DNA from: a virus
Taxonomy: Duplodnaviria > Caudoviricetes
Strand: one strand, 5' to 3'
Length of the DNA stretch: 42,276 nt
Virus record (IMG/VR): IMGVR_UViG_3300023173_000034
Location: 1-42,276 of that record
The position numbers were made by a program, and so were the translations under genes. The notes beneath the pieces were generated by a model, which did no database searches, was not told where the DNA came from, and saw only the letters and a list, made by a program, of their open reading frames with translations. Positions within the stretch are counted from its first letter, which is position 1. The number at the start of each line of letters is the position of its first letter. Of this stretch, positions 2,384 through 33,845 are shown piece by piece.

Positions 2384-3984
2384 TTGTCCTCGTAGGTTCT
2401 AGCCAGCGTAACGATGGCGTTAGTACTCAGTATGGTCGTTGCCACACTCACGGCATTCTTCAGGGCGTTCTTAGTGACCTTCAGTGGGTCGATGACGCCC
2501 ATCTTGTACATGTCTCCGTAGACGTTGTTCTTCACATCGTAGCCGTTGTTGTCGTCATCCGACACGTCGAACATAATCTCCGTAGCGTTGAGGCCGGCAT
2601 TCTCGAGTATCTGCGTCAGCGGAGCCGATAGGGCATACGCCATTATGGAATACGCGATACGCTCCTCGCTGGAGAGCTCCGGGTTATGTGACTGTATGTG
2701 GCAGGTGTCCGCCTCGCGCCATAGCGCCAGACCACCGCCGGGGAGTATCCCCTCCTCAAGAGCGGAGCGCACAGCACACACCGCGTCATCGACGCGGTCA
2801 AAAATCTCTTTCTGCTCGACGTCAGAGTTACCACCCACATATATGATACCGATACCTCCCGTCAGGCTAGCAATACGCTGCTTTATGAAGTCCCTATCAC
2901 CGCGCTTGGTGGCAGCGTCGTGCGCTTCCCACAGCTCCTTCACTCGTGCGTTGATGTCGTCGCTCTGCCCTTCGTCGCGCACGATTACCGTGCTGTCCTT
3001 GCCGACGATGACCTTAGCGGCGTGGCCGAGGTCTTTCATCGTCACCAAACTTAGGTCATCGCCCATGCTCTCGCTTATGAACCGCCCGCCTACGCTCACA
3101 GCAATGTCACTCATCAGCTCGTGCTGCTTGTATCCGAACTGAGGGGGTGTGATGGTGCACATCTTAAGGCCGTTCTTCACAACGTTCGCCGCCAGCGTAT
3201 TACCAACCTGCGTGCTACAGGGGCCTATGATGAGGAGCTTCTTACGGTCCGCCACAATAGGCTTCAGGACCGACTCCACCTGCAAGACGTTACTAATCTC
3301 GTGGTCTGTCAGTAGGATGTACACGTCCTCGAGGATACACTCATCCTTCTTCTGGTTGTTGACGAACAGCTTGTTGTCATAGCCGCGGTCAATCTTAATA
3401 CCGTCCGTTACGTCGCAGTATGTGGCCTCGCTCATGCTCTTCTCCACCGTCACGAGCCCATTCTCTCCTACCTTATTGTAGGCCTCCGCTATGATACCAC
3501 CGATGACGGGGTCGTTATTGGCGGAGATGGCCGCCACATCCTTAATCTTACGTGCACCCACCCTACGCGAGCGCTTCTCAAGGGAGCCCACCACGTCGTT
3601 GGCGATGCGCTGCACCTGCCGGATGACCTCCGTGCTGTTCACCTCGGGGGTGATGAGCGACATACCGCGTACAGCAATGGCCTCCGTCAGCACAATAGCC
3701 GTGGTGGTGCCGTCACCGGCGCTTGTCGCCGTCCTATCGGCGGCCTCCTTCATCATACGAACGGCTAGGTTCTCCACGGGGTCAATAAGGTCGATGCTCT
3801 TGGCAACAGTAACACCATCCTTAGTGACAGTAATCCCGTGGGTATGGTATTGGCTTTCTATCAGCACCGTCTTACCGCGAGGACCGAGGGTGCTCTTCAC
3901 CGCCTTGGCGATTGTGGCGATGCCGTTGCCTAATCTGCGACGCGCATCGTCGTCGAACGTAAGGCTCTTTGGTGTGTAGTCCAT
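2380..3984 (-). CDS. groEL: chaperonin GroEL
   Basis: 534 aa; STLGPRG, TKDGVTVAK, GDGTTTA, RVDDAVCA, GILPGGG, GVIDPLKVT motifs; no GGM tail. Confidence 0.97.
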   Translation of the reverse strand: MDYTPKSLTFDDDARRRLGNGIATIAKAVKSTLGPRGKTVLIESQYHTHGITVTKDGVTVAKSIDLIDPVENLAVRMMKEAADRTATSAGDGTTTAIVLTEAIAVRGMSLITPEVNSTEVIRQVQRIANDVVGSLEKRSRRVGARKIKDVAAISANNDPVIGGIIAEAYNKVGENGLVTVEKSMSEATYCDVTDGIKIDRGYDNKLFVNNQKKDECILEDVYILLTDHEISNVLQVESVLKPIVADRKKLLIIGPCSTQVGNTLAANVVKNGLKMCTITPPQFGYKQHELMSDIAVSVGGRFISESMGDDLSLVTMKDLGHAAKVIVGKDSTVIVRDEGQSDDINARVKELWEAHDAATKRGDRDFIKQRIASLTGGIGIIYVGGNSDVEQKEIFDRVDDAVCAVRSALEEGILPGGGLALWREADTCHIQSHNPELSSEERIAYSIMAYALSAPLTQILENAGLNATEIMFDVSDDDNNGYDVKNNVYGDMYKMGVIDPLKVTKNALKNAVSVATTILSTNAIVTLARTYEDK

Positions 3985-4006
3985 AATTTGATTTGATTAG
4001 CTACCC

Positions 4007-4917: not shown

Positions 4918-5045
4918 TATCAGATGAGTGTAGTGTTTGGGTTATATGCCAGTATACGCGCCGTGCCCCGCGCCGGAAAGCGATTTTTTTTTCGAGGGGG
5001 GGGGTCGCGATTTCAAAATTTCCTTGCGGATTTTTGGCGAATCCG

Positions 5046-5119
5046 TGTTTAAACATGCATCGACAAGGAATTAGATGTTTAAACAAATAAATCGAGCATC
5101 GGAAATGCGTGTTCAAACA
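5046..5119. repeat. three TGTT(T/C)AAACA palindromic boxes
   Basis: 5046-5055 and 5076-5085 are perfect palindromes; 5110-5119 has one mismatch. Confidence 0.75.
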
Positions 5120-5358
5120 AACAATAATAAACTGCGCACGGGGGGAGCCGTCCTCCCACCGATAAAGAGAAAGCCGTCTCACCTTAGACTCTTTTCAACC
5201 GACCCGAGGAAAGAGAGGTCGGTTAGCCCCTCCCCCGACCTACATCTCCCTTAATTTCCGACAAACTATACTTTTCTGCGTTTTGTAACTCGCTGATATT
5301 CAGTGAGTTTGAAAGTCAGTTCAGCGTTTCATACGCAAAACTTTTTTAATATGCAATA

Positions 5359-5389
5359 GTTGGAAACCGAAACCTTCGTGAGTCCTTTG
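5359..5389 (+). promoter_or_regulatory. candidate early promoter (GTTG...GAAACCTTCGTGAGTCCTTTG)
   Basis: Variant -7 box GTCCTTTG with GTTG 19 nt upstream; 16/21 identical to 9650-9670; starts the rightward arm. Confidence 0.5.
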
Positions 5390-5391
5390 CA

Positions 5392-5907
5392 ATGTCCAAC
5401 CGACATAGCATGGTCAACGAGCCATGAGGTTGGGGCGGAGATAGGCAACGAGACACTATAGTCCGCAACGCTCTTTGAAATAGCCCGAGGGGAGATAGCC
5501 ACGAGGGATGACTGCTGAAGCCGTGAGGAGTACAAGTACCGAACGGAGGCGAGTGGGAGGTGTTCCCTCCTATGAGCCAAGACAATGACCACCGCAGATG
5601 AGCGCACCATAGAGTGCGATGGTGAGCAATGGACACGAAAAGACACGAGGGAGGCAGTTGTCGCGGATGGGGAAATAGCCGAGGGATAGCGGTCAGCGAT
5701 GAGAGGCAAAATTGAAAGCCTCTGCGATGTAGCCTTACATGGTAGAGATACCATAGATGCGAGAGTAGAGCATGGGACACCATGGTACTTGATGGTAGCA
5801 CGGGGTGAGCAGAGACAAGTAGGTAGGTGCCCGAGTTAGAAAAACCGACATAAAGGTCACATGATTGAGGTGGCGGTGCAGTAGGGGTGAACCTACCGCA
5901 TTGTCAT
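5392..5907 (+). ncRNA. long structured non-coding leader or candidate ncRNA
   Basis: About 515 nt, purine-rich, no credible ORF; hairpins at 5392-5406, 5605-5624, 5702-5723, 5739-5754, 5771-5784. Confidence 0.45.
5470..5480 (+). promoter_or_regulatory. boxA-like antitermination element GCTCTTTGAAA
   Basis: Resembles rrn/lambda boxA (GCTCTTTAACA), about 80 nt after the candidate promoter. Confidence 0.5.
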
Positions 5908-5955
5908 TGGGGCGCATGGTGGTCATGAGGGGTTCGTTTCCCCTCCGCCCCACTA
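5908..5955 (+). ncRNA. minimal tRNA-like element (acceptor + T arm, no anticodon arm)
   Basis: TGGGGCG/CGCCCCA stem, CATG-GTGGT-CATG mini-hairpin, GAGGGG-TTCGTTT-CCCCTC T arm. Confidence 0.65.
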
Positions 5956-5969
5956 AAAAACCAAGAACC

Positions 5970-6182
5970 ATGAAATACATTCCTTCCACGGATGACCAAT
6001 GGATAAAGTTGGTCACCACGAGCCGAAAGTCCTTCGGCAGAGCCTCCACGAGAGGCGCGAACTACCACGCCAAAGAGCGTGGTTTGGTGGTTAAGAAAAA
6101 CCGCATTTCGGATGCTATCCGAGAGGCAATAACCGCCGACTATGAGAACACCCGTTTAGTATATGTGTGTCACGCTAAATAA
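5970..6182 (+). CDS. 70-aa basic early protein
   Basis: Start re-assigned to MKYIPSTDDQW after the A-rich leader AAAAAACCAAGAACC. Confidence 0.7.
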   Translation: MKYIPSTDDQWIKLVTTSRKSFGRASTRGANYHAKERGLVVKKNRISDAIREAITADYENTRLVYVCHAK

Positions 6183-6190
6183 TAGAAACC

Positions 6191-6319
6191 ATGACTATTG
6201 AAGCATTAATTCGTGAAGAGTTGGAACATGACTACTACGCCATGGAAACCAACCCAAGGGTCGACAAAGGCATCCTCCGCTTAATGGAGTGCGTCATTGA
6301 AGACATTCAGGTTAACTGA
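6191..6319 (+). CDS. 42-aa acidic early protein
   Basis: MTIEALIREELEHDYYAMETNPRVDKGILRLMECVIEDIQVN; its TGA stop lies in the ribozyme core. Confidence 0.65.
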   Translation: MTIEALIREELEHDYYAMETNPRVDKGILRLMECVIEDIQVN

Positions 6320-6359
6320 CGAGGGTTCAGTACCCGAAACGCCGTGAGGCGTCTTAACC
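6310..6359 (+). ncRNA. type I hammerhead ribozyme 1
   Basis: GGTTAA | CTGACGA | GGGT-tcagt-ACCC | GAAA | CGCC-gtga-GGCG | TC^ | TTAACC; all core nucleotides present; predicted cut after C6353. Confidence 0.92.
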
Positions 6360-6374
6360 AAAAACCTTAATCTA

Positions 6375-7013
6375 ATGATTAATGACTTGAAAGAAATTCG
6401 CTTGGTACGAAACCTCCGAGCCGAATACAATCAGCGAGTGCTAAAGCAGTACCGCACCGAGAATTCTCTCATCACCACTCAAGAGACCCTCCAAGGGGAT
6501 GTTTTCCTCTCGCACGAACAACGAGTTGGTGAGCGCAGAACGAGCACTCATTCTTACGGCTTTGAGGCGGACAACACTCGCAAGATGCACCTCCGCAGAA
6601 CCAAAAACGCCGAGTTGATAGAGTTTAAGTTGGTGTGTGATATCATCACCATTGACTACAACTTTAGTGAAGAGCCTCGTTTCGTTACTACGGAAATGTC
6701 CGAAGAGACGGCTCAACTCGCACCTCGTATGAAGGTCATTTACGGCACGAAGGAGGCGAAAGCCCTCCGAGATATGGCTCGTATGCAATACACCCTCAAA
6801 GACCTCTACAAGGGCAAAGAAACCCAAGGAATTGATGCCCTTGGTGCAATCAAGCCGGGCATCATCATTGACTGCCTCTCGGAATTGGTTGAACGAGCAG
6901 ATGCTGTCTGCGAGTGGGGCACGATATGGGATGCTAAAGATGTTGCATACAAACTTGAGGAAAAGGTTGACTTCCAATTCAAGACGCCGACCTTGAATTT
7001 CAACGCCAAATAA
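6375..7013 (+). CDS. hypothetical early protein
   Basis: 212-aa ORF with an A-rich start region, between the two ribozymes. Confidence 0.8.
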   Translation: MINDLKEIRLVRNLRAEYNQRVLKQYRTENSLITTQETLQGDVFLSHEQRVGERRTSTHSYGFEADNTRKMHLRRTKNAELIEFKLVCDIITIDYNFSEEPRFVTTEMSEETAQLAPRMKVIYGTKEAKALRDMARMQYTLKDLYKGKETQGIDALGAIKPGIIIDCLSELVERADAVCEWGTIWDAKDVAYKLEEKVDFQFKTPTLNFNAK

Positions 7014-7018
7014 GCAAA

Positions 7019-7071
7019 GGTTAACTGACGAGTGCTTTAGTAGCCGAAACCGCCTCCGGGCGGTCTTAACC
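7019..7071 (+). ncRNA. type I hammerhead ribozyme 2
   Basis: GGTTAA | CTGACGA | G(T)GCT-ttagt-AGCC | GAAA | CCGCC-tccg-GGCGG | TC^ | TTAACC; predicted cut after C7065. Confidence 0.9.
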
Positions 7072-7086
7072 AAAAACTCTAATATC

Positions 7087-8025
7087 ATGACAAAGACCGA
7101 CATCTTTGAAAAAGTAAAGCAGACCCTCATTGAGGGCATTGAAAAGGACGGCTTGAATTGGTTCAAGCCATGGAAGGATTCACGAGGCGGTGGTTTGGAC
7201 GATTGGCGTCCTATCAACCGCAAGACGGGTCAACCCTACAAGGGCATGAACATTTGGTTCTTGAGTTCAGCGATGCGTGACATGGGCTATGAGCACAACG
7301 AGTGGCTCACCTATAAAAACGCACAAGAGTTGGGCGGTAGTGTCCGCAAGGGCGAGTCCTCTACCGAGGTGTTCTTTTGGAACATTGGGTATTGGAATCC
7401 AACTACCAAAAAAGCCTACAAAAGCATGGCTGATGCCCTCGCCAAGGGTGAGAGCAAGGAGGACATCAAAGAATTCTTCTCGCTGAAGGTTTGGAATGTG
7501 TTCAACATTGCTCAATGCGATGACATTGAGCCACGCAACCCAAGCCAACCCATTGAGCCCGAGGAGGAGAATATCTTCAGCCCTATCGAGGAGGCGGAGC
7601 GCATCATTGCCGAGTGGGACACAAAGCCTCGCATACAACACGGAGGCAACTCGGCTCACTATAGCCCGAGCATGGACTATGTGCAGATGCCCGAACCAAA
7701 AAACTTCGTGGACGGGGACTCTTATTATAAGACGCTCTTCCATGAGTTGGTGCATAGCACGGGACATGAGACGCGCCTCAAGCGCAAAGGCATCGTGGAG
7801 TTTGATAAATTCGGCTCCGACCGCTATGCGATGGAGGAGTTGGTCGCAGAGAGCGGTTCTATGATGTTGACGGGTCTTGCGGGACTCAACCCGAAGGATT
7901 CCGATGACAACTCGGTTGCCTATGTCAAGAATTGGTCGAAGCGACTCAAGCAAGAGCCAAGCAAGGCGATTGTTGGAGCGCTGACTCAATCAGCCAAGGC
8001 TGTTGAGTTAATCATGGGCAAGTAA
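7087..8025 (+). CDS. ardC: ArdC-family ssDNA-binding anti-restriction protein (DUF1738 + zincin-like domain)
   Basis: WFKPW, PIN..TG.PYKGMN, WLTYK.A..LGGSVRKGE, VFNIAQC, AHYSPSMDY, LFHELVHSTGH, YAMEELVAE. Confidence 0.92.
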   Translation: MTKTDIFEKVKQTLIEGIEKDGLNWFKPWKDSRGGGLDDWRPINRKTGQPYKGMNIWFLSSAMRDMGYEHNEWLTYKNAQELGGSVRKGESSTEVFFWNIGYWNPTTKKAYKSMADALAKGESKEDIKEFFSLKVWNVFNIAQCDDIEPRNPSQPIEPEEENIFSPIEEAERIIAEWDTKPRIQHGGNSAHYSPSMDYVQMPEPKNFVDGDSYYKTLFHELVHSTGHETRLKRKGIVEFDKFGSDRYAMEELVAESGSMMLTGLAGLNPKDSDDNSVAYVKNWSKRLKQEPSKAIVGALTQSAKAVELIMGK

Positions 8026-8033
8026 GCCCGAAA

Positions 8034-8077
8034 GGATGGATGGTCGCAGAGGGGGTTCGACTCCCCCTCCATTCCCA
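8034..8077 (+). ncRNA. second minimal tRNA-like element
   Basis: GGATG/CATTC stem plus GAGGGGG-TTCGACT-CCCCCTC T arm, TGGTC linker, ending in CCA. Confidence 0.6.
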
Positions 8078-8128
8078 AACTTAATAACCAAACTCACGAG
8101 TGCGAGAGGATAACACGGCACAACTACG

Positions 8129-9339: not shown

Positions 9340-9358
9340 GTTTTTGGTTAGATAAGTG

Positions 9359-9385
9359 GGGGAGGTGTGCAGACCTCCCCTTTTT
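9359..9385 (+). terminator. intrinsic terminator
   Basis: GGGGAGGT-gtgcag-ACCTCCCC-TTTTT. Confidence 0.8.
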
Positions 9386-9400
9386 AAATCAAGTAGCATC

Positions 9401-22454: not shown

Positions 22455-25400
22455 CTACTCTCCAAGCATAGCCTTTCGGTACGCCTCAATCTCCTTATCG
22501 CTTTTCTTCTTATCTCCTCCTTCTATAACATAGTCAGAGTAGTTGAAGAGCCTGAGCAACGCCTCGCCCGGGTCCTTTGAATCGGGGATGGCTTCGATAT
22601 TCTTAACCATCTTGTGGATGTTAGAAGCAGGGATGCCCGTCAGTTCTGTGATGTGATTAATCATTCTCCACATGTACTTATCCTTCTTCACTGGGTCAGT
22701 AGCCTTGGTGAATGATTTGATATCCTTAAATACCAATCCAATCTGCTCGAATACAGGGAGCGTAGTAAATTCTCCAGCCCACGGAGCGCCACTAACGAGG
22801 TCCTTGACTGCCGTAAGAATATCTCCAACAATAAACAAGGCGTTGAGGTTGCCAAGCAATGCCGCACGGCCAAGTGCCTGCTCATCCTCCTCATCCCAAT
22901 CGGAAAGTAATCCGGGAAGGCCGAGGGCAACCCATTGGAACACCATAGGAACAAGGATGTGATATGTCACTACTCGTCTTGCGATATCACCATATCCGTC
23001 CTGTGTTGGTAGACCCTTCATCTTTCTACTTAGGCTCATGAAGGCGCTCATCTCTCTGCGAAGCAACGCCTTTGGTGAAGATAAGAACACATTCAAGAAT
23101 CGGTATGCAGGGCCGCCAGTTTGGAACCAGTCCTTGTTGGTAATGCCACTATCTTGCTGCGTTCTGAGTGCCTGTTTAGTCGCCTTTTCGCTCGCATACT
23201 TCTGAGCCCCAGCCTCGTCACCGGGATTCTTCTCCAAGTACTGCTGCTTGTAGTACAAGTAGTTAGCAAGACCACCCATGATACCACCCTTGTCACCCTG
23301 CTTAACCAAGTACATGAGTGAGTTCATTAGGTTTCTCGTCTGCTCTTTTGTGACTGTAATATCCTTGCCACCTACCTTTTTATTTACAAGGATTGGAGAC
23401 TCATTGAGAGAACCCTCATAGCTGTATCCTTCTAGGATATCTCCAATGTTTGAGTTCTCATATCTCTCCTGAAACAGGGGCGAGTTAGCATACCACTCCT
23501 TCCATAGTTTGCGAGCCTGAGGAAGAGCGAGGGCAGTGTACTTACTCCAGTTTGTGTAGCCGATATAGTCAGCAAAGGCAAATGCAGAAGTGAGCTGCTT
23601 CAGGAATACCGTTGGGTTGATGGCAAGCTTAGACTTGATATACATACCCATCATAGCATTGGCAAGCTGAGATTCGTTTTGAGAGATTCCCTTTCTTGCA
23701 ACCTTTTGCATCATGTCCTTCAGAGCGTCGTATGTATTCTTACCACCGAGCTCTATGATTGCTGCCTTTACGTTCGCATTGTCAAGAACCTTGCTCAGGT
23801 CTCTCATGGCCTCAGCATAGGCACGGAAGTATTCCATGTCTTTGAGGTATGAGTTGAGCACCGAGTTGCCATCGACACTTTGAATGGGACGAGAGTTCTT
23901 TACCCTCGCCTTGGTAGACTGGCCACCAACGCTGGTCTGGTATTCAGAAGAGCCGGCCAGTAAGTCGAACTGAAGGTCGCCCTCTTCGCCCTCTCTAAAA
24001 ATTCTGCCTGCATAGAACTGATTCCATGGCATGTTGGTTCTATAGATGGCCTTGTATACCTCGTTGTATTTTTCATACAGGCTGGGATACAGCTCGTTAA
24101 CCTGCCAGTCTGCCCACTCTTTTGTCTTGGCATCAAGTCTGTCGGTAATCTGCTGCATGATTCTAGCATACTGGTTCTTACCAAACTTCTTCTCAAAGGA
24201 TGCCACATTAGCGGGGTCCTTGTATTGATTATACAAGTAGTAAGCTTGGTTATTACTGAGAACAACCTCAAGCTTTTCAAGCTGTCTAATTATCTGCGCC
24301 TTACGTTTGTTGGTGGCAGAGTCGTATTCCTTCTTCAGCTCATTAGCCTTCTCCTCGTTAAGCCATATGACATTCTTGTCATTGATGAGGTCTTTACTCA
24401 CAACAGGCACAGCATTACGCTGCATCTCAAGCTTGTAGTTATCGCCCCATATCTCCTTGGCTTTGTTGCTGATGATATCAAACACTTGTTTCTTGCCAGA
24501 GACAAAAGAAACTCGAGCCTTGAAGAGCCTGTCATCAAAGATTTCCATGAGCTTGTTGCCGCCCATGGCCTCAGACAGTCCGCTTGATATTCTTTGAAGC
24601 AATAGAGCGAGGTCCATTTGCTTGGTGAAGAACTCATCCACGCTGTTCTTTATCTTACCAACAAAGGACTTAATACCTCCATCAAAGGTCTTCCTTCTCT
24701 GCTCCTTGTTCTTAAGTTCTATAAGCTTCTCCTTGTTAGCCTCTTCACCCTCCTCGGAAAGGTCGAGCTCCTCACCCGTGATGCCATTGTAGGCGTCAGA
24801 TATAAGATGCTCATAGTAAGCACGTTGAGCATCAATCTCTCCGCGCATCTGCGAGCGACCCGTAGATATAAGAGTACGGAGGTTGTCTCTCACGGCAGCA
24901 AGGGCGTCTACCTTATGCGGGTTGTTATCCTCCATAAGCATCGCCTCGTTGTACATAAGAGCAATAGAGAGCGCGTTCATCTCGTCGCTCTCTTCCTGCG
25001 TCAGCGCGGTCTTTACAGACAGCTTATTGAATCTCTTCTCCTGCTTCTGCATTAGGTCCTCAATGTTCTGAGCAGACATACCCTCATCTACGAGCATTGG
25101 GCTCTTCTTATTGGTAAGGGAACCAAGGATGTTCTGCAAGGACACGCTTACTCTGCCCACTCTACGACCCGATACCATTCTAGTGGTGGGGGTCTTCAGG
25201 AGTTTGTCAATAGCAGCACTTAGGTCACGCACATAGAACTCGTTGACGAATCCAGTGACGCGCTCCATCACTGCGGGCAGTGAGTCTGGAGTGGCGTCTG
25301 TGATAGCCTTCATCAGCTTGTTGACATCAGCCTTATTGAATACGGTCTTAGGCAAGTTCTTGCGGATGAACATGCGCATAGCGCGCTTAGCTTTTTCAAG

Positions 25401-28400
25401 TTCAGCCGCGCCCTTCTTCATGTTGGAAAGCATCGCACGCAACGCCTTGAAGTCCGCTTGGAACTTCTTGTTGGCGGCGGGGATGTTCAATGCCTTGTCC
25501 AATCCAATCTGCATCTCCGCCTGAATGGTTGGGCTCTGCGCTTTAAAGAAATCAGAGTTAACCAACAGCTCCTGAGCCTTGGCTCTTACATCCGCAGCGT
25601 TGTGTAGCAACACGCCCAATCTCTTGGCATTAGCATAGCGCTTAATCTTCTTGGTCAACTCGTTGAAGAACGCCTGACCCTGAGCAACACCGCCCTCCGC
25701 ATTGGCGAAGCCATCGGGGAGCATAGTGCCCATCACATCGATAGGCACAGCGAGTGCTGACTTAATCTCGGTGGCGCTGTATCCCTGCTCCTTCAAGAAA
25801 GCAGCTATAACTCTATCGGTGTAGCCCCTCTCGCGCACATCATTGATGAACTCGTAGATGCTCTGCGTTCCGGCGCCATAGCCTTGGCGGCGTAGTGAGT
25901 TGGCGCTTCCGCCCCCGCCAATAACTCTAAGGAATGGGTTGAAGAACTTCCCATCCAGCGTCATGTGGTAACCGGAGACCTCACCGGTGCGCTCATCACG
26001 TCTAGGCTTTGTGCCGAGCCTGTCATCAAGCTTGCGCACAGCGATTCTAAACTGAGCGGGGTCGGTAGTAGCGGGAACAAATCCCTTATGGTTCATATTA
26101 AAGCGGTGACCTAGCTCCTGAGCCTGACTCTGAGGCTTAGCGCTCCAGTTCTGGTATGCAGTGGCGTCGCCCCTCTTCTGACGGATAGCGGGAGGTGGTT
26201 CAACGCCAGCCTCTGCCCTTAGGTATTCACCGTGGAGTCTCTGTATATCATTAAAGAGCTCTTGACTTATAAATCCGTCTTTAAGCTCTTTGCGTGCTAA
26301 AGAATATCTTTCTGGGTCAACGCTCTTAGCCAAGAGATTGCCAGAGCTTTCCAGATACACACTGCTAATAAATTCACCATGGTCATCCCCGGCTATTTCC
26401 TCAATACTTCCGAGCGATTTCACTCTACTTGAAGTTGAAAAAAACGAACCGCCAACCGTAACTAGATTTGATATGACAATGGGAGTCGAGCCGGGACCCT
26501 CTTCTGAGCCTTCCCAAATAAGTAGGCCTGAAGCAACAGTCTTGAGCTTTCCGGTATCCTTGAAATTTTCTGACGGCTTAAACTGTAACCCGCCACCCAC
26601 ATATTCAAGGTCGCCAAAAGAATCTACTTCTACATTAATGCTAACTTCTCCGGAGACGCTTCTTAAAGACCCAAGATTTATAGCGTGACCCGCGTAATCG
26701 TCTGACGCCGAAATGGTCAAATAATTTACAGTTTCTAAAGCCCCCAAGTCAAACCCTGAATCACCTAAGCGGACTCTAAGAGAACCGACAATTTCTTTTA
26801 AGTGTGGACCAAGGGTTCTTAGTGTTTTATTGTCAGTTATTTGTAACGACCCTTCAAGTTTTTTTAATTTACCTAGGTCCCTCAGTCTTGATTTCTCTCC
26901 TATCACAATTGGGCTTGACCTAACAATTTCCTCAAGTTCTCCAAAGCTTTCTAAAGTATCCGGAACCCCGTATTCAAAACGTCCAAGACGCTTCATCTTG
27001 CCAAGCGTTATTATTGAAGGCGGTAAATTTAAATCCCCTTCAACAACCTTCAACTCCCCAAGAGACATTAATTTTTGTGCATATGACAAATCAAGATTGT
27101 CACCTACACGCTCTAATTTACCAAGAGACTCAAGCTGCCCTGCGCTATACAAGTTAACATTATCTTGGACAGTGGTTAAATTGCCAAGGCTTCTTATGTC
27201 GTTTACTATATGCACACCTTGGTCGACACTTGTTACTCCTATATGAAAATCTAAGGAGTTTTCTTGTATGAATAAATCACCGCCAACTAACTCAATATTA
27301 CCGGTGCTGTTTTTATCATATATGGTTGCGTCCCCTTCAACAGTTTTTAAATTAGCGGGGATGAGCTGTGACTGTTGGTTGTAATGTCCCGCGATGACCC
27401 TCAAGCTTTTAGCACTATTGGAGATAGCGTTTGAAACCATTCGGACGGCCCCCTCTTCGCCATACGCCTCAACGAGGCTTGCAAAAATGTCAAACGATGT
27501 AAAGCTCCCTCCCGAATAGAGCACTACATAGTCTGTAGCATGCGACACATAATCGGATGGGTCCTCGTTATTTATCGCTTCACCGAATAACTCAAACACC
27601 CTAGCTTTTCCTTTTATCTCAAGCCTGCTGCCAATTTGCTTCCCATCTCTCATGGCCTCTATCGCCGCAGCTTTTAAGCCCATACGAATTAAATTGTCGC
27701 CATAAAAGTTTCCAATAAGAACCTCGGTCTCCGGGGTTAATTCTTCCATGCCTCGGGCAACTTTTCCTTTTATCTCAGGAGCAACATCGTTAGCATCAAT
27801 CTTTAAATTAAAGTCCTCATTGAGTCGCTCGACGAAACCATTTCCCCCATACTGCATGAAGCTGTATCGGTTTGCTTCAGCAGTAAGGCTAGATACCGTT
27901 CTAAAGTCCTGCAAGGTTAAAGGGCGCTTCGATATCTCCTCCCTAAACATCCTTATCTTTTCGTTGAAGCGCTGCCCCTCTGCCCATTTCTCACCGCCCG
28001 GAACGGCGCCACTTTCCAAGAACTGCTCAGCTACAGGGCGCATCTTTGGCTCCATCTGTTGTCCTTCAAGGATACCTCGCACCTCTTCAATGCTTCCTCT
28101 TCTTGTTCTTACGGCAATACGGGCTTTTGGCACGCCGCCTTTATCCGTTGTTACAAAGACATAGAAATCGCCGCCCCTAAGCTGCCCTTCGGCTCCGGTC
28201 TTTGTGCACCATGGCGTATCCTGAACAAGCTGACTTAAGGCGTCTGCGTTGTCATTAATATCTTGCTCACTAACACCGTCGCCACCGGGGAACTTAAGCC
28301 ACGTGCCCTCAGCGGTATCGTACATCTTAAATGCCTTAACAACATTGGGCGCGTTGGCCATCATCGTCTCAACGTATTCTTTTAATACTGCGTCTGATGA

Positions 28401-31400
28401 TATGGTCTGCTCGCCAACCATTCTACTAATGGTGCCCTCGTCGTATGGCGTGTAGTTACGAAGAGTTTGGCGATTTCTCTTTTTGTAGCTCCCTGTTCTA
28501 GCGTCGTAGTTATGTGTGACGACAGCATCGAAAAGCATCAAGCGAATGGCGGGGGGTATACCGATTTCATGTTGTAGAAAGGCTGCCCATTTCTTTATAG
28601 TGTCATCTTGAGTGACTTGATATTCGTTTAGCACACGCATTCTGTGATAATCACTTTCTGCCTTCTCTTCAATTTCCGCAACCGTTTTCCTACTGAGACC
28701 CATCCGGTCTGCTTCTTTTGCCTGACCAAGAATATCTTTGGTGATGTTATCGCCATCGTATATTTTAAGAAAGTCAATTATATAACTATCAGTTTGGTTA
28801 ACCTGTGCGCCTATAGCAAACGCTATAGATTCTAGAAATCTATATACAGCCTGTGCTGGAGAGCTGCTTTTTGGGAATAGGCGGTTGGCCAATAGGATGA
28901 CAGCATTAACATCTTTGAGATTTGTTTTTTTAACGTCTGCCCTATTAACATCGGCGGATGTATCTGAATCAAATAATAGGCTATCTAAAACCCTTTCAAC
29001 AATGCCTTCGGCTCTACTCGCTTGAAGGATTTCTTCGCTGGTGGGCTCTACTCCATCTTTTTTATAGCCCATTGCCGTGAAAAAGCGACCGCTATCTTCA
29101 AGAACTGGAAGTATCTCCCCCAGCATCTTAATGGCTTCCTGCTGGTACTTCTCTTGGATACCAGCCTTCTGATACTTAATGCCTTCAGTCGGAGTGATGG
29201 TAATCAATCCCTTCTTCTGACGCATAGCGTTCTTAGTTTCAAGGGTCTGAGGTGAGCGCTTCATGCTTTGCGCACCATCATAAGCTACTCGAGTAACAGA
29301 GAATCCAAACTTCTCATAGAACTTAGTCAAGTCCTTGGCCATCTTTGCGAGCTTGGCTTCAGAATACTCTTTACGAGTTACCGGGTCTCCTTGATATCGC
29401 TTTGTTGGATACGCATCAAGTTTAATAGTCAGGCCAAGTTTATCGGCGGCTGCCGTAATACGATTCATTAACCTAGTGCCAGCTCCAGTTCCAGCAAGCC
29501 TTGGGTCAAATAATTCAATGCCATCTATGTATATAACATTACCCTCTTTAGGGCTGATACGTATGTTCATTTCAAGCTCCGGATTCTCAACCGAAGTGTC
29601 CATAGTCATAAATCCACCCCGCATAATAATGCTTGGGAATATGTGGAAGTCTGGGTCGTTTGCCATTTCGGCAAACAAGTTGGCTACATTGTTGTAAGGC
29701 TGATAGAATTCTCTACGCCAATTGAAATCCTCATCCATGAAGTACACCCTCACTTCGTCCGCGGTAAGAGCATCATCGGTACTTGTTGGATATGGTTTTC
29801 TTCCCTTTCTGTTCAGGCTTTCACGAGCCTCCTCGTTGGTCATCGCCTTCTTCTGACGAAGTGCTGGCTTCTTGACCTTGATGTTCTCGATAGCCATCTG
29901 CTGCTCTCCCGTAAGCTGAGCTGCTGGGAGGGCATCTTCTAGAGTAATGACCGTGGGCTCCTCAACTATATCGGTAGGAATCTCAGCGACATACTGAGCG
30001 CCCATGGCGGAGCGTGCAGCCTGAGGCTTCGCTCTTTCTCCAATCTCTATCTGAGGACCGGTTACTGGCTTGGCCTTGGGATATACTTTGCGCACATCCA
30101 CGGCCTTATCGAACACCATTATGGGTGTCCCCTCAATAACAAACGGATAAGAGGGGTGGGTATCCATTCCCTCCTTGCGGGTATCGATTACCTTGCTGTC
30201 CTTATTGAACTGAATAGCAGATATAATATCTCCATATTGTACCTTCTCAAGAGATGGGTCGTTGACATAGTCAAGAACGCCCGTCTTCATCTTTGCCGTT
30301 GGCATCAATGGCGGTATCCCAAAGCGCTCATAAGAGGTGGCAGAGAAGAACGACTTAGTGAATGCACCACGAGTGTCATATGAGATTACTCCCTTGCCTT
30401 CAATGGGCATAAGGTCTCTCAGGTCTTCCAAGGTTTCTATTTGTCCCTTGTGTCCTTTCTTCTCTAGCTGTTCGGCAATAGTAACGCCGGGAGTTCTTGA
30501 TGCTGTTCTAAGTTTGGCGTTGACATAGTCAATCAATTCCTGTGGAGACGCGCCCTTCATGACGGCGTTCTGAATTTCCGCCATTAGATATTCATAAAAG
30601 GAAAGGCTACCAGCAATACCATCAGAAGCCTGAGACATCACCAATCCTACACCATCGCTCTCTTTTACTTTCTTTAGAATCTTGTTGGCTGCCGTCTCGC
30701 TAGTAAACGCCCAGCCCATACCGCTACCATAGGGGTATAGGTATCCACCCTTGAAGAAGTATCTCGTTCCAGATGGGCTCTCAATTTCACCATAGGTTGC
30801 TTGGTCGGCTGCAAATACAAACGCATTAGCGCCCGACAAGTCGTTGATGCTACCGCGCTTGATAGCCTCTATGTCGATGCCACCTCGGTTAAGCTGCTGC
30901 TTGCGTGTGGCGTTTATGTTTATAGAATCTGAGCCCTTCTCATTAATGTTCTCAGCAACAGTGCCAGATGCGACTGTTGAGCCGGGCTCCGCAGCGCTAT
31001 CAAGAACAACGAGGTCAGCCGCTACAATCGCCTTGCCTCTCGCAACCTTGCGGGCGAGGACGTCAAGCATAGCGGTTACGCTCTCGTCGGTTTTACCAAA
31101 CTCAGAAGGAAGAGACACATTGAATGCTCTCGCCAATCGCTTAATAAACTCTACAATCTGTCCCTTAACCGTCGACGTTGCGTTGACGTACTCTCTAGAC
31201 AGCGCACCCATGAGCTGAGCGAGGCGCTCCTCATTCTGGAAGTTCTCGTCGTAGTTCTGTGCGAAGGCATCAATCTCTTTTGCTAGGGCACTGTCATCCG
31301 CAAGAGTCTTGCGGACATTCTCCATCATGGTCTTGGCCACAGCCTGAGCCTTGGAGTCCGTTCTAACCTTGTTCAAGAATATAGCATGGAACACCTCGTG

Positions 31401-33845
31401 CGCTACCGTGCTTGCGTCCGCTGTCGCAAGGTTGATATGGATTACGCCATCGTTGTAGGCGCCCTCATCTGTCGCTGCTGTTCCGGTGTTCTTAGAGAAC
31501 TCCTCGCCTGTGGCGTGAAGTATAATCTTCACATCGGGCAACAGCTTTTGAATGGCCTTAGCTCCACGAACGGCGAGCTTCTCAATGCGAGTCTGCTCCT
31601 TAGTGAGTGGCTGTGCGCCCGTCTCATTAACGACCAGATTGTCGGAGAGCTTTCTACCCCCCTCGAATACGGCAGCAACCTCTTCATTTGTGGCGGCAGC
31701 TACTGGTGCTTGACCAAGCGCTTCAGCCTTGAGGTCTTCGAGTTGTTGTTGCTCCTCCTCAGTGAGGGTTACTTCTTCTTCGACACGCGCTTCGGGAGCG
31801 ACTTCAGGTTCTGCTTGGGGTGCTCCTTCCGCCACTTCTTCGCCAACTCTGGCTTCTGGCTGAACAGGAACTTCACTTGTTGCTTGCTCTTGAATGGCAT
31901 CTTCTTGTGATTTTGTATATAGTTCTTTTATCTTCTCATCAATCTTAGCGACCTTTTCTTTTGCTATAGACTGAACCGCATCGTCCTTACCGGCGACCTT
32001 TTCTAAAGTTAACTGCTTTTCTCTTACGAGATTAAACATCTCTGCCTGAGCTTCCTCCGGCATATCCTCGGGGATTTTACCAAGAACGTCAATGAACTCA
32101 TCAACATTGGCAATCACCCTATCACCTTCGGCTCGTTCCATCTTGCCAGCAGCAACCTGTTGGTCGATGTACTCAGATACTTTTTCTCTTTTAATTGCGC
32201 CAACAAATTCCTTGGCCTGCTTGAAGTCTTCTGATGTAACACCCTCAGGTCTAGAGAATGCACCGACTGTTCCAGCTATAATGCCACCGCCAATAGCTTC
32301 TTGAGCTCCGGCATATAGCACGTCCATCACAATTTCTTGTGCGGTCTTTGGCTTGAAAATATTCTTGCCTTGAGAGTCGGTTACATATTGATTAATCAAA
32401 TCATTTGACAACTCCTGAAGAGCACCCGTCTCAAATTCAGAGAGGCCACCCTTTGTAATCTTACTGGCGTATCCCCTTAATCCCTTGGCTTCTTGGCGAA
32501 CAACTCTTTCAAAAGCCTCGGCTCCCACGTCTTCGCCCATTCCAGCAAGTCGGGTAAGAACCTTACCCGCCAAAATTCTTTTCACCATGGGCATCCCATT
32601 CAGGGTGTTTCTCAAACCAACTCTTTCAAGTATTCCCTCAATGCCAGCGGTGGCGAGTAAGTATGTTTGTCTTTGAGCCTCAGTCATTTGAAGGTCTGGA
32701 TTCGCAGCAAGCTCATTTGCTAATTGCTCTTCCGCCGCCTGATAAGACATGTCCATAAAAGATAAGCCCATCGTAGAAGCAGATGTTGCCATCGCGGGCA
32801 ACGAGGTCATTAGTCCACGAACGGCACCCGAAAAGAATCTATCCTGAAGCTCTCTCTCTTTTCTTTTATCAATGGCGTATCCAGCCTTTTTGATAATTTC
32901 CTCTCGGCCCGCTTCCTTTATATATGGTAGAACTTCATTCTCAATACCCTTGTCTACCGTGGCAAAGTATTCCATGTATGCCGCATTGGCCGCAAGGGCA
33001 TCTGAGTAGCCATCATCAATGGCCTTCTTATACATAACATATAAGTCGGGGTGCTTATCTTTTTTGTCCTCAATAAAGCGAGCAATCACCTGACCGTTCA
33101 GTGAGTTCTCTTCTCGGATATTGTTAACCCAGTTTCCAAATCCCTCAATGAGACCGTTCCACTTGTCGCCAACCCACTCTCCAGCAGTAACTTCTACTGG
33201 CTCAAGTAATTCTGATTTATCCTCTTTGGGTTTTACTAAACCTTTTACTACTTGGTTAAATGCAACAAATGGGGCGGCAAGCGTTGGAACCTCTGGAGCC
33301 TTTATCTCCTCGGGTTGCGGCATCTCAACGGCGCCCTCTTCAATGCGACCCTCCATAACTGCCTGAGCCTCTGGAGATATCCCTTCTTCGCCAGCAATAG
33401 CGCCGGTCTCAAGGTCCATAGTAATGCCCTCCTCGGTAACAACCTCGGTTGGTCTAGTCTCATATGGCACAGGAATGGGCTGCTCTTGTGGAGCAACACC
33501 GCCCGCCTCTTGGATAGCCTGCTGCGTCTGTGGCGCTAAGCGTGGAGACGGGGGGAGTGTAAGGTCACGCCCGGGTAAAGAAGCCAAAGTAGGCGTCTCC
33601 ATAGGAGAAGCCAACTGCTCTTCTTGAAAAGAAACCTCTGAAGGTTCTTCTTTTTTTTTTAATGGAGCATACTTTACATCGAACTCTTCACGCCCTTTGG
33701 TATATAAGCCGTCTCTAGTTACAACACCAAATACTTTATCTCTATATTGTGGGTCTTCGTACTTAACTATAAACTCTTCATATGAGTTGGTATAGTAACC
33801 CTTAGATACGAGGGTGTCGTATAACTTTTTGAGCTCGTCATTCAT
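22455..33845 (-). CDS. giant polyvalent internal virion (ejection) protein: zincin peptidase, GNAT, PcfJ-like WC domain, L-domain/LRR-like repeats
   Basis: 3796 aa; HEVFH (about aa 816) followed by EERLA; GTGAGTRLM...KFYEKFGF GNAT; PWCT...GDFYVF...RIAVR...EVRG; repeated LGxLxxVxGxLxL units. Confidence 0.85.
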   Translation of the reverse strand: MNDELKKLYDTLVSKGYYTNSYEEFIVKYEDPQYRDKVFGVVTRDGLYTKGREEFDVKYAPLKKKEEPSEVSFQEEQLASPMETPTLASLPGRDLTLPPSPRLAPQTQQAIQEAGGVAPQEQPIPVPYETRPTEVVTEEGITMDLETGAIAGEEGISPEAQAVMEGRIEEGAVEMPQPEEIKAPEVPTLAAPFVAFNQVVKGLVKPKEDKSELLEPVEVTAGEWVGDKWNGLIEGFGNWVNNIREENSLNGQVIARFIEDKKDKHPDLYVMYKKAIDDGYSDALAANAAYMEYFATVDKGIENEVLPYIKEAGREEIIKKAGYAIDKRKERELQDRFFSGAVRGLMTSLPAMATSASTMGLSFMDMSYQAAEEQLANELAANPDLQMTEAQRQTYLLATAGIEGILERVGLRNTLNGMPMVKRILAGKVLTRLAGMGEDVGAEAFERVVRQEAKGLRGYASKITKGGLSEFETGALQELSNDLINQYVTDSQGKNIFKPKTAQEIVMDVLYAGAQEAIGGGIIAGTVGAFSRPEGVTSEDFKQAKEFVGAIKREKVSEYIDQQVAAGKMERAEGDRVIANVDEFIDVLGKIPEDMPEEAQAEMFNLVREKQLTLEKVAGKDDAVQSIAKEKVAKIDEKIKELYTKSQEDAIQEQATSEVPVQPEARVGEEVAEGAPQAEPEVAPEARVEEEVTLTEEEQQQLEDLKAEALGQAPVAAATNEEVAAVFEGGRKLSDNLVVNETGAQPLTKEQTRIEKLAVRGAKAIQKLLPDVKIILHATGEEFSKNTGTAATDEGAYNDGVIHINLATADASTVAHEVFHAIFLNKVRTDSKAQAVAKTMMENVRKTLADDSALAKEIDAFAQNYDENFQNEERLAQLMGALSREYVNATSTVKGQIVEFIKRLARAFNVSLPSEFGKTDESVTAMLDVLARKVARGKAIVAADLVVLDSAAEPGSTVASGTVAENINEKGSDSININATRKQQLNRGGIDIEAIKRGSINDLSGANAFVFAADQATYGEIESPSGTRYFFKGGYLYPYGSGMGWAFTSETAANKILKKVKESDGVGLVMSQASDGIAGSLSFYEYLMAEIQNAVMKGASPQELIDYVNAKLRTASRTPGVTIAEQLEKKGHKGQIETLEDLRDLMPIEGKGVISYDTRGAFTKSFFSATSYERFGIPPLMPTAKMKTGVLDYVNDPSLEKVQYGDIISAIQFNKDSKVIDTRKEGMDTHPSYPFVIEGTPIMVFDKAVDVRKVYPKAKPVTGPQIEIGERAKPQAARSAMGAQYVAEIPTDIVEEPTVITLEDALPAAQLTGEQQMAIENIKVKKPALRQKKAMTNEEARESLNRKGRKPYPTSTDDALTADEVRVYFMDEDFNWRREFYQPYNNVANLFAEMANDPDFHIFPSIIMRGGFMTMDTSVENPELEMNIRISPKEGNVIYIDGIELFDPRLAGTGAGTRLMNRITAAADKLGLTIKLDAYPTKRYQGDPVTRKEYSEAKLAKMAKDLTKFYEKFGFSVTRVAYDGAQSMKRSPQTLETKNAMRQKKGLITITPTEGIKYQKAGIQEKYQQEAIKMLGEILPVLEDSGRFFTAMGYKKDGVEPTSEEILQASRAEGIVERVLDSLLFDSDTSADVNRADVKKTNLKDVNAVILLANRLFPKSSSPAQAVYRFLESIAFAIGAQVNQTDSYIIDFLKIYDGDNITKDILGQAKEADRMGLSRKTVAEIEEKAESDYHRMRVLNEYQVTQDDTIKKWAAFLQHEIGIPPAIRLMLFDAVVTHNYDARTGSYKKRNRQTLRNYTPYDEGTISRMVGEQTISSDAVLKEYVETMMANAPNVVKAFKMYDTAEGTWLKFPGGDGVSEQDINDNADALSQLVQDTPWCTKTGAEGQLRGGDFYVFVTTDKGGVPKARIAVRTRRGSIEEVRGILEGQQMEPKMRPVAEQFLESGAVPGGEKWAEGQRFNEKIRMFREEISKRPLTLQDFRTVSSLTAEANRYSFMQYGGNGFVERLNEDFNLKIDANDVAPEIKGKVARGMEELTPETEVLIGNFYGDNLIRMGLKAAAIEAMRDGKQIGSRLEIKGKARVFELFGEAINNEDPSDYVSHATDYVVLYSGGSFTSFDIFASLVEAYGEEGAVRMVSNAISNSAKSLRVIAGHYNQQSQLIPANLKTVEGDATIYDKNSTGNIELVGGDLFIQENSLDFHIGVTSVDQGVHIVNDIRSLGNLTTVQDNVNLYSAGQLESLGKLERVGDNLDLSYAQKLMSLGELKVVEGDLNLPPSIITLGKMKRLGRFEYGVPDTLESFGELEEIVRSSPIVIGEKSRLRDLGKLKKLEGSLQITDNKTLRTLGPHLKEIVGSLRVRLGDSGFDLGALETVNYLTISASDDYAGHAINLGSLRSVSGEVSINVEVDSFGDLEYVGGGLQFKPSENFKDTGKLKTVASGLLIWEGSEEGPGSTPIVISNLVTVGGSFFSTSSRVKSLGSIEEIAGDDHGEFISSVYLESSGNLLAKSVDPERYSLARKELKDGFISQELFNDIQRLHGEYLRAEAGVEPPPAIRQKRGDATAYQNWSAKPQSQAQELGHRFNMNHKGFVPATTDPAQFRIAVRKLDDRLGTKPRRDERTGEVSGYHMTLDGKFFNPFLRVIGGGGSANSLRRQGYGAGTQSIYEFINDVRERGYTDRVIAAFLKEQGYSATEIKSALAVPIDVMGTMLPDGFANAEGGVAQGQAFFNELTKKIKRYANAKRLGVLLHNAADVRAKAQELLVNSDFFKAQSPTIQAEMQIGLDKALNIPAANKKFQADFKALRAMLSNMKKGAAELEKAKRAMRMFIRKNLPKTVFNKADVNKLMKAITDATPDSLPAVMERVTGFVNEFYVRDLSAAIDKLLKTPTTRMVSGRRVGRVSVSLQNILGSLTNKKSPMLVDEGMSAQNIEDLMQKQEKRFNKLSVKTALTQEESDEMNALSIALMYNEAMLMEDNNPHKVDALAAVRDNLRTLISTGRSQMRGEIDAQRAYYEHLISDAYNGITGEELDLSEEGEEANKEKLIELKNKEQRRKTFDGGIKSFVGKIKNSVDEFFTKQMDLALLLQRISSGLSEAMGGNKLMEIFDDRLFKARVSFVSGKKQVFDIISNKAKEIWGDNYKLEMQRNAVPVVSKDLINDKNVIWLNEEKANELKKEYDSATNKRKAQIIRQLEKLEVVLSNNQAYYLYNQYKDPANVASFEKKFGKNQYARIMQQITDRLDAKTKEWADWQVNELYPSLYEKYNEVYKAIYRTNMPWNQFYAGRIFREGEEGDLQFDLLAGSSEYQTSVGGQSTKARVKNSRPIQSVDGNSVLNSYLKDMEYFRAYAEAMRDLSKVLDNANVKAAIIELGGKNTYDALKDMMQKVARKGISQNESQLANAMMGMYIKSKLAINPTVFLKQLTSAFAFADYIGYTNWSKYTALALPQARKLWKEWYANSPLFQERYENSNIGDILEGYSYEGSLNESPILVNKKVGGKDITVTKEQTRNLMNSLMYLVKQGDKGGIMGGLANYLYYKQQYLEKNPGDEAGAQKYASEKATKQALRTQQDSGITNKDWFQTGGPAYRFLNVFLSSPKALLRREMSAFMSLSRKMKGLPTQDGYGDIARRVVTYHILVPMVFQWVALGLPGLLSDWDEEDEQALGRAALLGNLNALFIVGDILTAVKDLVSGAPWAGEFTTLPVFEQIGLVFKDIKSFTKATDPVKKDKYMWRMINHITELTGIPASNIHKMVKNIEAIPDSKDPGEALLRLFNYSDYVIEGGDKKKSDKEIEAYRKAMLGE
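31769..31900 (-). CDS. nested +1-frame 43-aa basic protein (MPFKS type)
   Basis: MPFKSKQQVKFLFSQKPELAKKWRKEHPKQNLKSLPKRVSKKK; A-rich upstream region with A at -3. Confidence 0.7.
   Translation of the reverse strand: MPFKSKQQVKFLFSQKPELAKKWRKEHPKQNLKSLPKRVSKKK

Follow-up and report, generated by a model that had tools for sequence, protein, structure and literature searches.

The window analysed here, a single 42,276-base contig of a tailed phage, contains two sequences, HH1 (6309..6360) and HH2 (7018..7072; all coordinates are on the plus strand unless stated otherwise), that are by sequence real type I hammerheads for which self-cleavage is predicted. Each ribozyme appears to be packed against the initiation region of the gene that follows without covering it, and the two likely divide a long early transcript, by constitutive cutting, into messages the size of a gene, with short 5'-OH leaders. 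The question addressed is why phages carry self-cleaving ribozymes between genes, for which the length of these leaders provides a measurable constraint.

Anatomy and detection of the two hammerheads

In HH1, which is delimited here to include the flanking conserved A residues at 6309 and 6360, stem I (6310-6315/6354-6359) is followed by the core CTGACGA (6316-6322), a 4-bp stem II with the loop TCAGT, GAAA (6336-6339), a 5-bp stem III with a GTGA (GNRA) loop, and GTC, after which the cut is predicted at 6353|6354. HH2 has the same order of parts, with stem I at 7019-7024/7066-7071, the core at 7025-7031, a stem II of 1 + 3 pairs with a U bulged at 7033, GAAA at 7046-7049, a 6-bp stem III with a TCCG (UNCG) loop and a predicted cut at 7065|7066. 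Both copies contain CUGANGA, GAAA and NUH together with the A15.1-U16.1 and G10.1-C11.1 pairs, which we take to be the hammerhead consensus core and which were seen fixed in the family alignment, and in both stem I is open and stems II and III are closed by loops, as expected of type I topology.

A preliminary description of this DNA had proposed two hammerheads with an intact core, and both are complete: a type I descriptor recovers HH1 and HH2 in the window as against one match in 300 dinucleotide shuffles (both strands), and a model made from HH1 and 18 relatives, with HH2 left out, scores HH2 at 58 bits, where the next match in the window reaches 10 bits. A finder for types I, II and III run over the window returned no hammerhead besides these two. 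The same description had stems II and III paired, with a GNRA loop in one copy and a UNCG loop in the other; those loops exist, both on stem III, but the pairing of stem II in HH2 is interrupted by the bulged U7033. A search with Rfam hammerhead models, which it had proposed as a check, matched neither copy, as the Rfam 15 hammerhead families gave no match at E<=1 in the window and none at E<=10 in 6250-7150 (901 bases); the HH1/HH2 subfamily lies outside the coverage of these models.

Two 15-nt blocks are identical between HH1 and HH2, one of them spanning the first 12 leader bases, and a single ancestral cassette is the probable origin of the two copies. In nearest-neighbour folding, the probability of stem I is just 0.13 and 0.23 in the two copies. 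Within 6313-6335 of HH1 and 7019-7045 of HH2, the sequence of loop II is the complement of the ACUGA with which the core begins, which accounts for a competing fold predicted for HH2. Just 3 of 148 relatives have such a loop II (among the matches listed), so that the complementarity is probably incidental, although it could slow cleavage.

Related hammerheads in other phages

HH1 and HH2 belong, as their sequences indicate, to a large family of phage hammerheads, which was sampled in three ways. A pattern with TAA/TTA in stem I found at least 139 viral loci (about 860 stretches estimated) holding at least 176 distinct type I hammerheads (the first viral set); a core-only pattern found at least 125 loci (about 10,000 stretches estimated), in partial overlap with the first viral set, and gave 77 distinct hammerheads in 64 of the 125 loci among the matches listed; and a metagenome scan found at least 139 loci, with 155 hammerheads in 117 loci, 152 of them new relative to the earlier sets, again among the matches listed. 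All three sets are samples in which only identical ribozymes were collapsed and near-identical phages were kept. At least 36 loci carry two or more hammerhead copies, ahead of changing genes, and the genes that flank the hammerheads differ between relatives.

Pairing of stem I was assessed without preselection in 133 distinct core matches, 131 of them with full flanks. Where stems II and III are good, 67 of 76 core matches have five or more stem I pairs, as opposed to 6 of the 55 others (among the matches listed), and 5% of swapped stem I partners reach this level. In a 19-row alignment of HH1 with 18 of 19 length-matched members (one L225 copy omitted), the rows of which were picked for pairing, 12 of 15 pairs are changed on both sides. 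These compensatory changes support the helices, so that the covarying stems noted in the preliminary description are upheld, and stem I appears to be selected for pairing and not for sequence. A contig of another sequence in metatranscriptome run X2 has the core and stems II-III of HH1 (6315-6354) with a different 5-bp stem I; it stops 19 nt past the cut and has loose ends, and by its sequence represents natural covariation in the same habitat.

Several unpaired positions are conserved as well. In the core-only set, U1 and A3 of loop II are present in 37 and 35 of 37 members and the A residues at -7 and +7, which flank stem I, in 37 and 33 of 37; the corresponding counts in the metagenome set are 130, 123, 130 and 129 of 135 (among the matches listed in both sets). 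Pseudoknots between loop II and the flanks show no excess over shuffles (110 of 316, where the shuffles average 103, among the matches listed) and were rejected; taken together with the conserved unpaired U and A positions, this makes a non-canonical U-A contact the likely tertiary link.

Two relatives deserve separate mention. In L265, a hammerhead whose loop II is very large (3493-3630) is followed about 360 nt on, before ardC, by a core-less site (3940-3998) that retains the hairpin of stem III, the GTC and a leader of 21 nt; by eye, the upstream core could pair with the core-less site through 6 bp of stem III and 6 bp of stem I, and the site could be either a decayed copy or a second cut site served by one core. 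Elemovirus (MT497075.1, L365), cultured on Flavobacterium sp. BAL314, carries at L365 8994-9057 a type I ribozyme of the HH1/HH2 family with a 28-nt leader and a predicted cut at L365 9049 (near 27452 of MT497075.1), over which the record annotates a short reverse-strand ORF, and at L365 7210-7260, before its first rightward gene, a type III hammerhead recognised by eye. This phage and its host provide a cultured test system for ribozymes of the HH1/HH2 type.

Leader length and start-codon geometry

Both predicted cuts lie exactly 21 nt before an ATG, as had been described: the HH1 leader occupies 6354..6374 (ATG at 6375) and the HH2 leader 7066..7086 (ATG at 7087). The former consists of 6 nt of stem I and 15 nt of unpaired initiation region, with A at -13, -12, -11 and -6 and C at -3, and the latter has A at -13, -12, -11, -6 and -3. 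Because of the identical 15-nt blocks, these two equal lengths are not independent observations.

Leaders in relatives were measured to the first ATG past stem I that opens at least 30 codons. Such an ATG lies within 60 nt in 143 of 152 hammerheads of the metagenome set, and 138 of these starts lack a Shine-Dalgarno (SD) motif; among the SD-less leaders of up to 40 nt (n=137), 127 measure 18-26 nt and 20 exactly 21 nt (all among the matches listed). Leaders of 21 nt make up 8 of 73 in the first viral set, where the median is 22 (among the matches listed). Two random SD-less leaders are equal in length in 10-11% of cases (0.114 in the metagenome set) and two leaders in one locus in 15 of 73 (among the matches listed in both instances), and one phage has five leaders that share their first 12 bases and measure 19, 19, 19, 20 and 21 nt. 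The fixed 21-nt spacing of the preliminary description is thus rejected, since it is a minority length in relatives and lengths spread even among leaders with identical first 12 bases; the equality of the HH1 and HH2 leaders is nothing special. The claim survives in a looser form, in that the spacing to the start codon is constrained, and it is this bounded length, seen in 127 of the 137, which argues from sequence for a link between the site of cutting and the initiation of translation.

What sets the bounds is suggested by the start codons. In SD-less leaders of the metagenome set aligned on the ATG, A peaks at -13/-12/-11 (82/87/78%), -6 and -3 (among the matches listed), and in Flavobacterium johnsoniae A-13, A-12, A-6 and A-3 promote initiation (Baez et al.; PMC6847099), with a zone of low pairing at -20..+20 reported around starts (PMC6847099). 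Stem I of HH1 and HH2 lies at -21 to -16 and so outside these four positions, contrary to the earlier proposal that its 3' strand is part of the initiation region. In 134 relatives stem I covers -14 in 28, -13 in 11 and -12 in 4 (among the matches listed). Relatives with SD motifs have longer leaders, and the motif falls in stem I in 0 of 81, 1 of 33 and 0 of 5 (three counts, among the matches listed). The number of free bases before an ATG is 16-20 for other structures in the window and 15 for both ribozymes. A 16-base pattern was used to look for leaders that occur as modules in their own right, apart from the ribozyme. It returned mostly chance or coding matches and this candidate was rejected; the informative matches, judged by eye, were the core-less site in L265 and a set of five hammerheads from a single phage.

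On the other side of the ribozyme, an upstream ORF was found for 60 of 77 core-only members and for 142 of 152 metagenome members, and in 55 and 134 of these, respectively, its stop codon is no more than 16 nt from the core or falls within the ribozyme (among the matches listed). These positions indicate that the hammerhead fills a gene junction, and also that a terminating ribosome would sit on stem I.

Genome context and the probable early region

The phage encodes GroEL, Sak, an exonuclease, a primase, a helicase, virion proteins and two tRNAs, and it is of the lytic type. Its 1,097-aa virion protein is matched by 87 phage records, 86 of which are named for Flavobacterium, Cellulophaga, Tenacibaculum or Maribacter, and its start codons have A-rich upstream regions devoid of SD motifs; for these reasons a Bacteroidota host is likely, probably one of the Flavobacteriaceae. 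Matches in host genome contigs (7 loci) are mixed, come mostly from metagenome-assembled genomes and are uninformative on the host. Among the virion genes, a 3,796-aa protein (22455-33845, minus strand) is without a match in Pfam or PHROG at E 0.01.

HH1 and HH2 lie where a run of small rightward genes starts, which we infer to be the early region. A 42-aa ORF (6191..6319), which has no family match, ends in a TGA (6317-6319) that is the UGA of the HH1 CUGA core. Between the two predicted cuts is a 212-aa ORF (6375..7013), whose TAA stop lies 5 nt before stem I of HH2; it has no Pfam or PHROG match and four relatives of 73-84% identity, and a search of viral contigs returned no relative. HH2 is followed by a gene for a 312-aa anti-restriction protein of the ardC family (7087..8025; PF08401 ArdcN, PF18818, phrog_7245).

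Ahead of the first early gene there is a long structured untranslated region (5330-5900), which may be an antitermination leader. It includes a boxA-like motif at 5469..5480 that is similar in two relatives, L310 and L265. A putative, non-canonical promoter is placed near 5390, and the first strong terminator-like hairpin downstream (9358..9388) is the likely end of the early transcript.

Two folds resembling a mini-tRNA, each with an acceptor-like stem, a TGG linker and a T-arm, bracket the hammerhead-bearing genes. The first (5909..5952; folding z -2.0), in which the T-arm loop is variant, ends 18 nt before the ATG at 5970 and is a candidate host-nuclease cut mark of the HH1/HH2 operon; the second (8034..8077), which has a CCA end, starts 8 nt past the ardC stop and is a candidate 3' boundary of the ardC piece, with a z of -0.7 that is not significant by folding alone. 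A PreQ1 match at 5923-5970 was rejected, as it scores 29 bits against a gathering threshold of 39 and overlaps the first fold. Related loci contain 14 further distinct folds of this kind, a count made without a chance control, of which six share the strand of a type I hammerhead and several lie 19-21 nt before an ATG.

Part of the region is present in six metatranscriptome runs, in two of them with contigs at a share of at least 0.4. Contigs of run X1 (5708-6944 and 6938-8118) bridge both predicted cut sites, which runs weakly against complete cleavage; since X1 depth is flat near 5 and 4998-5250, upstream of the putative promoter, is covered too, DNA carry-over and incomplete cutting look the same in this run. 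Runs X3 and X4 cover neither cut site.

The link to ardC

The association with ardC was followed in 67 ardC loci, which provide 50 distinct complete upstream regions. A hammerhead cut is predicted within 130 nt upstream in 6 of the 50, comprising three type I, one type II and two closely related type III ribozymes, and one more type III before ardC was recognised by eye in L283, outside this count. No hammerhead was found upstream in the remaining 44, from which it follows that the cut appears dispensable for ardC; the ribozyme is likewise not ardC-specific, judging by its distribution. A motif like the Bacteroidota -7 element occurs in the last 60 nt upstream in 14 of the 50, a count made without a chance control, and cut and promoter look like alternative ways of making a 5' end. 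In the closest ardC relative, L310 (64%), stem I is changed and the leader measures 22 nt. Several loci (L267-L278, L302, L311 and L318) share a different element at the place of HH2, 110 nt upstream of ardC, which consists of two spaced conserved boxes and a G-rich hairpin 13-15 nt before the ATG and is a candidate promoter or RNA element.

Proposed processing of the early transcript and alternative readings

A hammerhead cut after GUC leaves a 2',3'-cyclic phosphate on the upstream piece and a 5'-OH on the downstream piece. In the reading that we prefer, transcription would run from the promoter near 5390 to the hairpin at 9358, and each cut would release stem I, a duplex of 6 bp and -4.1 kcal/mol. 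The upstream piece would keep its stop codon and end in stems II and III, while the downstream piece would start like a short primary transcript, minus the 5'-monophosphate, with a complete initiation region. Lacking the monophosphate, it would be subject to slower 5'-end-dependent decay, which would uncouple the lifetimes of the early genes, ardC included. The 21 nt would then comprise 6 nt of stem I and the roughly 13-18 unpaired bases needed by a Bacteroidota start, making leader length a packing limit and not a timer or switch. The mini-tRNA-like folds before the first gene and after ardC would fit as further cut marks.

Hammerhead-made 5'-OH ends are not efficiently phosphorylated in E. 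coli, according to an unpublished remark (PMC4191395), and 5'-OH substrates are cut poorly by the 5'-sensing route (PMC4191395). RNase E also cuts by direct entry, which is common, whatever the 5' end (PMC4191395), and the cut of the Bacillus glmS ribozyme leads to decay (PMC6765202), so that stabilisation by the cut is not assured. A more elaborate version, in which early operons of Bacteroidota phages would be divided by elements that make 5' ends and can replace one another (promoters, hammerheads of whatever topology and mini-tRNAs that host enzymes cut), with hammerheads gated by translation through the upstream stop on stem I or core and handing ArdC a decay-resistant 5'-OH message trimmed to a minimal leader, is speculative and in its entirety rather unlikely.

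The preliminary description had seen in cleavage a possible translational on-switch. In such a switch, release of stem I's 3' strand and loss of the bulky three-way junction would turn downstream translation on. The tightly bounded leader length would fit such a switch, as would the position of stem I (-21..-16), which reaches the margin of the low-pairing zone (-20..+20; PMC6847099), and in RNA viruses of fungi and plants translation is promoted by self-cleavage, in a different, cap-related setting (PMC13725137). On the other hand, the known initiation determinants lie outside stem I. Mean predicted openness of -15..+15 rises on cutting from 0.660 to 0.725 (+0.065, n=233), with a gain above 0.1 in 52 of the 233 relatives (among the matches listed), but control starts from the same loci gain equally on truncation, from 0.609 to 0.681 (+0.072, n=294), 83 of the 294 by more than 0.1, and when uncut are less open than the ribozyme starts (0.61 vs 0.66). 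In HH2, -15..-1 is already 0.94 unpaired uncut and 0.95 cut; in HH1 the same segment goes from 0.60 to 0.47 and +1..+15 from 0.22 to 0.46. Determinants paired in the uncut RNA and freed by the cut, the mark of a sequestered site, were thus not found in these computations. The predicted accessibilities speak against an unmasking switch, as does the leader rule, which argues for punctuation, and the on-switch is accordingly an unlikely explanation; a modest boost of translation by cutting is possible because -21..-16 lies at the edge of the low-pairing zone.

About equally hard to sustain, and distinctly unlikely, is a reading in which a ribosome that terminates at a stop in or near stem I unfolds the ribozyme, so that less upstream translation would mean faster cutting, and processing or decay of the early messages would be timed in this way. 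The upstream stops in the core of HH1 and 5 nt before stem I of HH2 are as this reading would have them, and in relatives the stops cluster at -10 to -8, -3, +1 and +11 relative to the core (among the matches listed). The same overlap is, however, predicted by dense gene packing together with the stop triplets that the motif has built into all three frames; the TAA of stem I is not required, as GGTTAA is found in only 7 of 37 core-only members, and 17 of 77 members have no upstream ORF found nearby (among the matches listed in both counts).

Early phage genes need to be transient, and cutting could expose their messages to host nucleases and so shut them off, in the manner of glmS. The glmS ribozyme is a precedent for such a decay timer (PMC6765202), but in nearly all relatives listed the cut leaves a full initiation region downstream and a stop codon with two hairpins upstream, ends that a decay trigger would not need to preserve, which renders this explanation improbable. 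About as improbable is the idea that the copies are mainly repeats for shuffling early genes, or make circular RNAs between two cuts, with cleavage incidental: the two shared 15-nt blocks and the differing flanking genes would suit it, but strong covariation of the stems around a fixed core suggests selection for catalysis and not for DNA identity, no circular joints were found in the RNA contigs (at low depth), and no circles were detected by Perreault 2011 in the systems reported there (PMC3088659).

Comparison with known systems

The element, the anti-restriction link and the processing idea have been in print since 2011. Clustered prophage hammerheads were shown to cleave in vitro and in E. 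coli, with ardA directly downstream in several cases, and were proposed to process polycistronic RNA into gene-length mRNAs (Perreault 2011; PMC3088659); the same source places a hammerhead of the haloviruses HF1/HF2 13 nt before an early start codon (PMC3088659). As in those systems, the window phage carries more than one hammerhead on the same strand, placed around single genes of a phage transcript, the genes are not constant, and an anti-restriction gene lies directly downstream, ardC here and ardA there (PMC3088659). Unlike them, the window has type I ribozymes with a 6-bp stem I, a 4-bp stem II, a 5-nt loop II and no pseudoknot excess, in a phage of lytic type with a likely Bacteroidota host, and a leader of 18-26 nt tied to A-13/A-12 is seen here but does not appear in the two results sections of Perreault 2011 that were compared (PMC3088659). 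The hammerheads of Rfam 15 share the catalytic core and three-way junction with HH1 and HH2, although their models fail to match either copy.

The processing proposal was taken up again by Weinberg et al. 2019, who describe function as undefined and roles as largely elusive (PMC6765202). In RNA viruses of eukaryotes, type I hammerheads have been connected with translation (Lopez-Galiano et al. 2026; PMC13725137), where those in the 5' UTRs of chrysoviruses and fusariviruses, like HH1 and HH2, are located upstream of a start codon and their cleavage is linked to translation (PMC13725137). The hosts there are eukaryotic, initiation is cap-independent and the UTRs are much longer, so that these cases are no evidence for unmasking in bacteria.

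A literature search, in which subscription papers were largely outside the range, found no study of leader length after phage hammerheads. What is added here is the leader rule, by which leaders mostly measure 18-26 nt and stem I ends shortly before A-13/A-12, and the cultured phage Elemovirus.

In phage T7, the early transcript is cut by RNase III, through which each early gene, the anti-restriction gene among them, obtains a short 5' leader, and RiboJ is an engineered insulator that likewise gives a defined short 5' leader. HH1 and HH2 would act in a similar way. They differ from the former in being predicted to cleave themselves and to leave a 5'-OH, where T7 relies on a host enzyme that leaves a 5'-phosphate, and from the latter in being natural.
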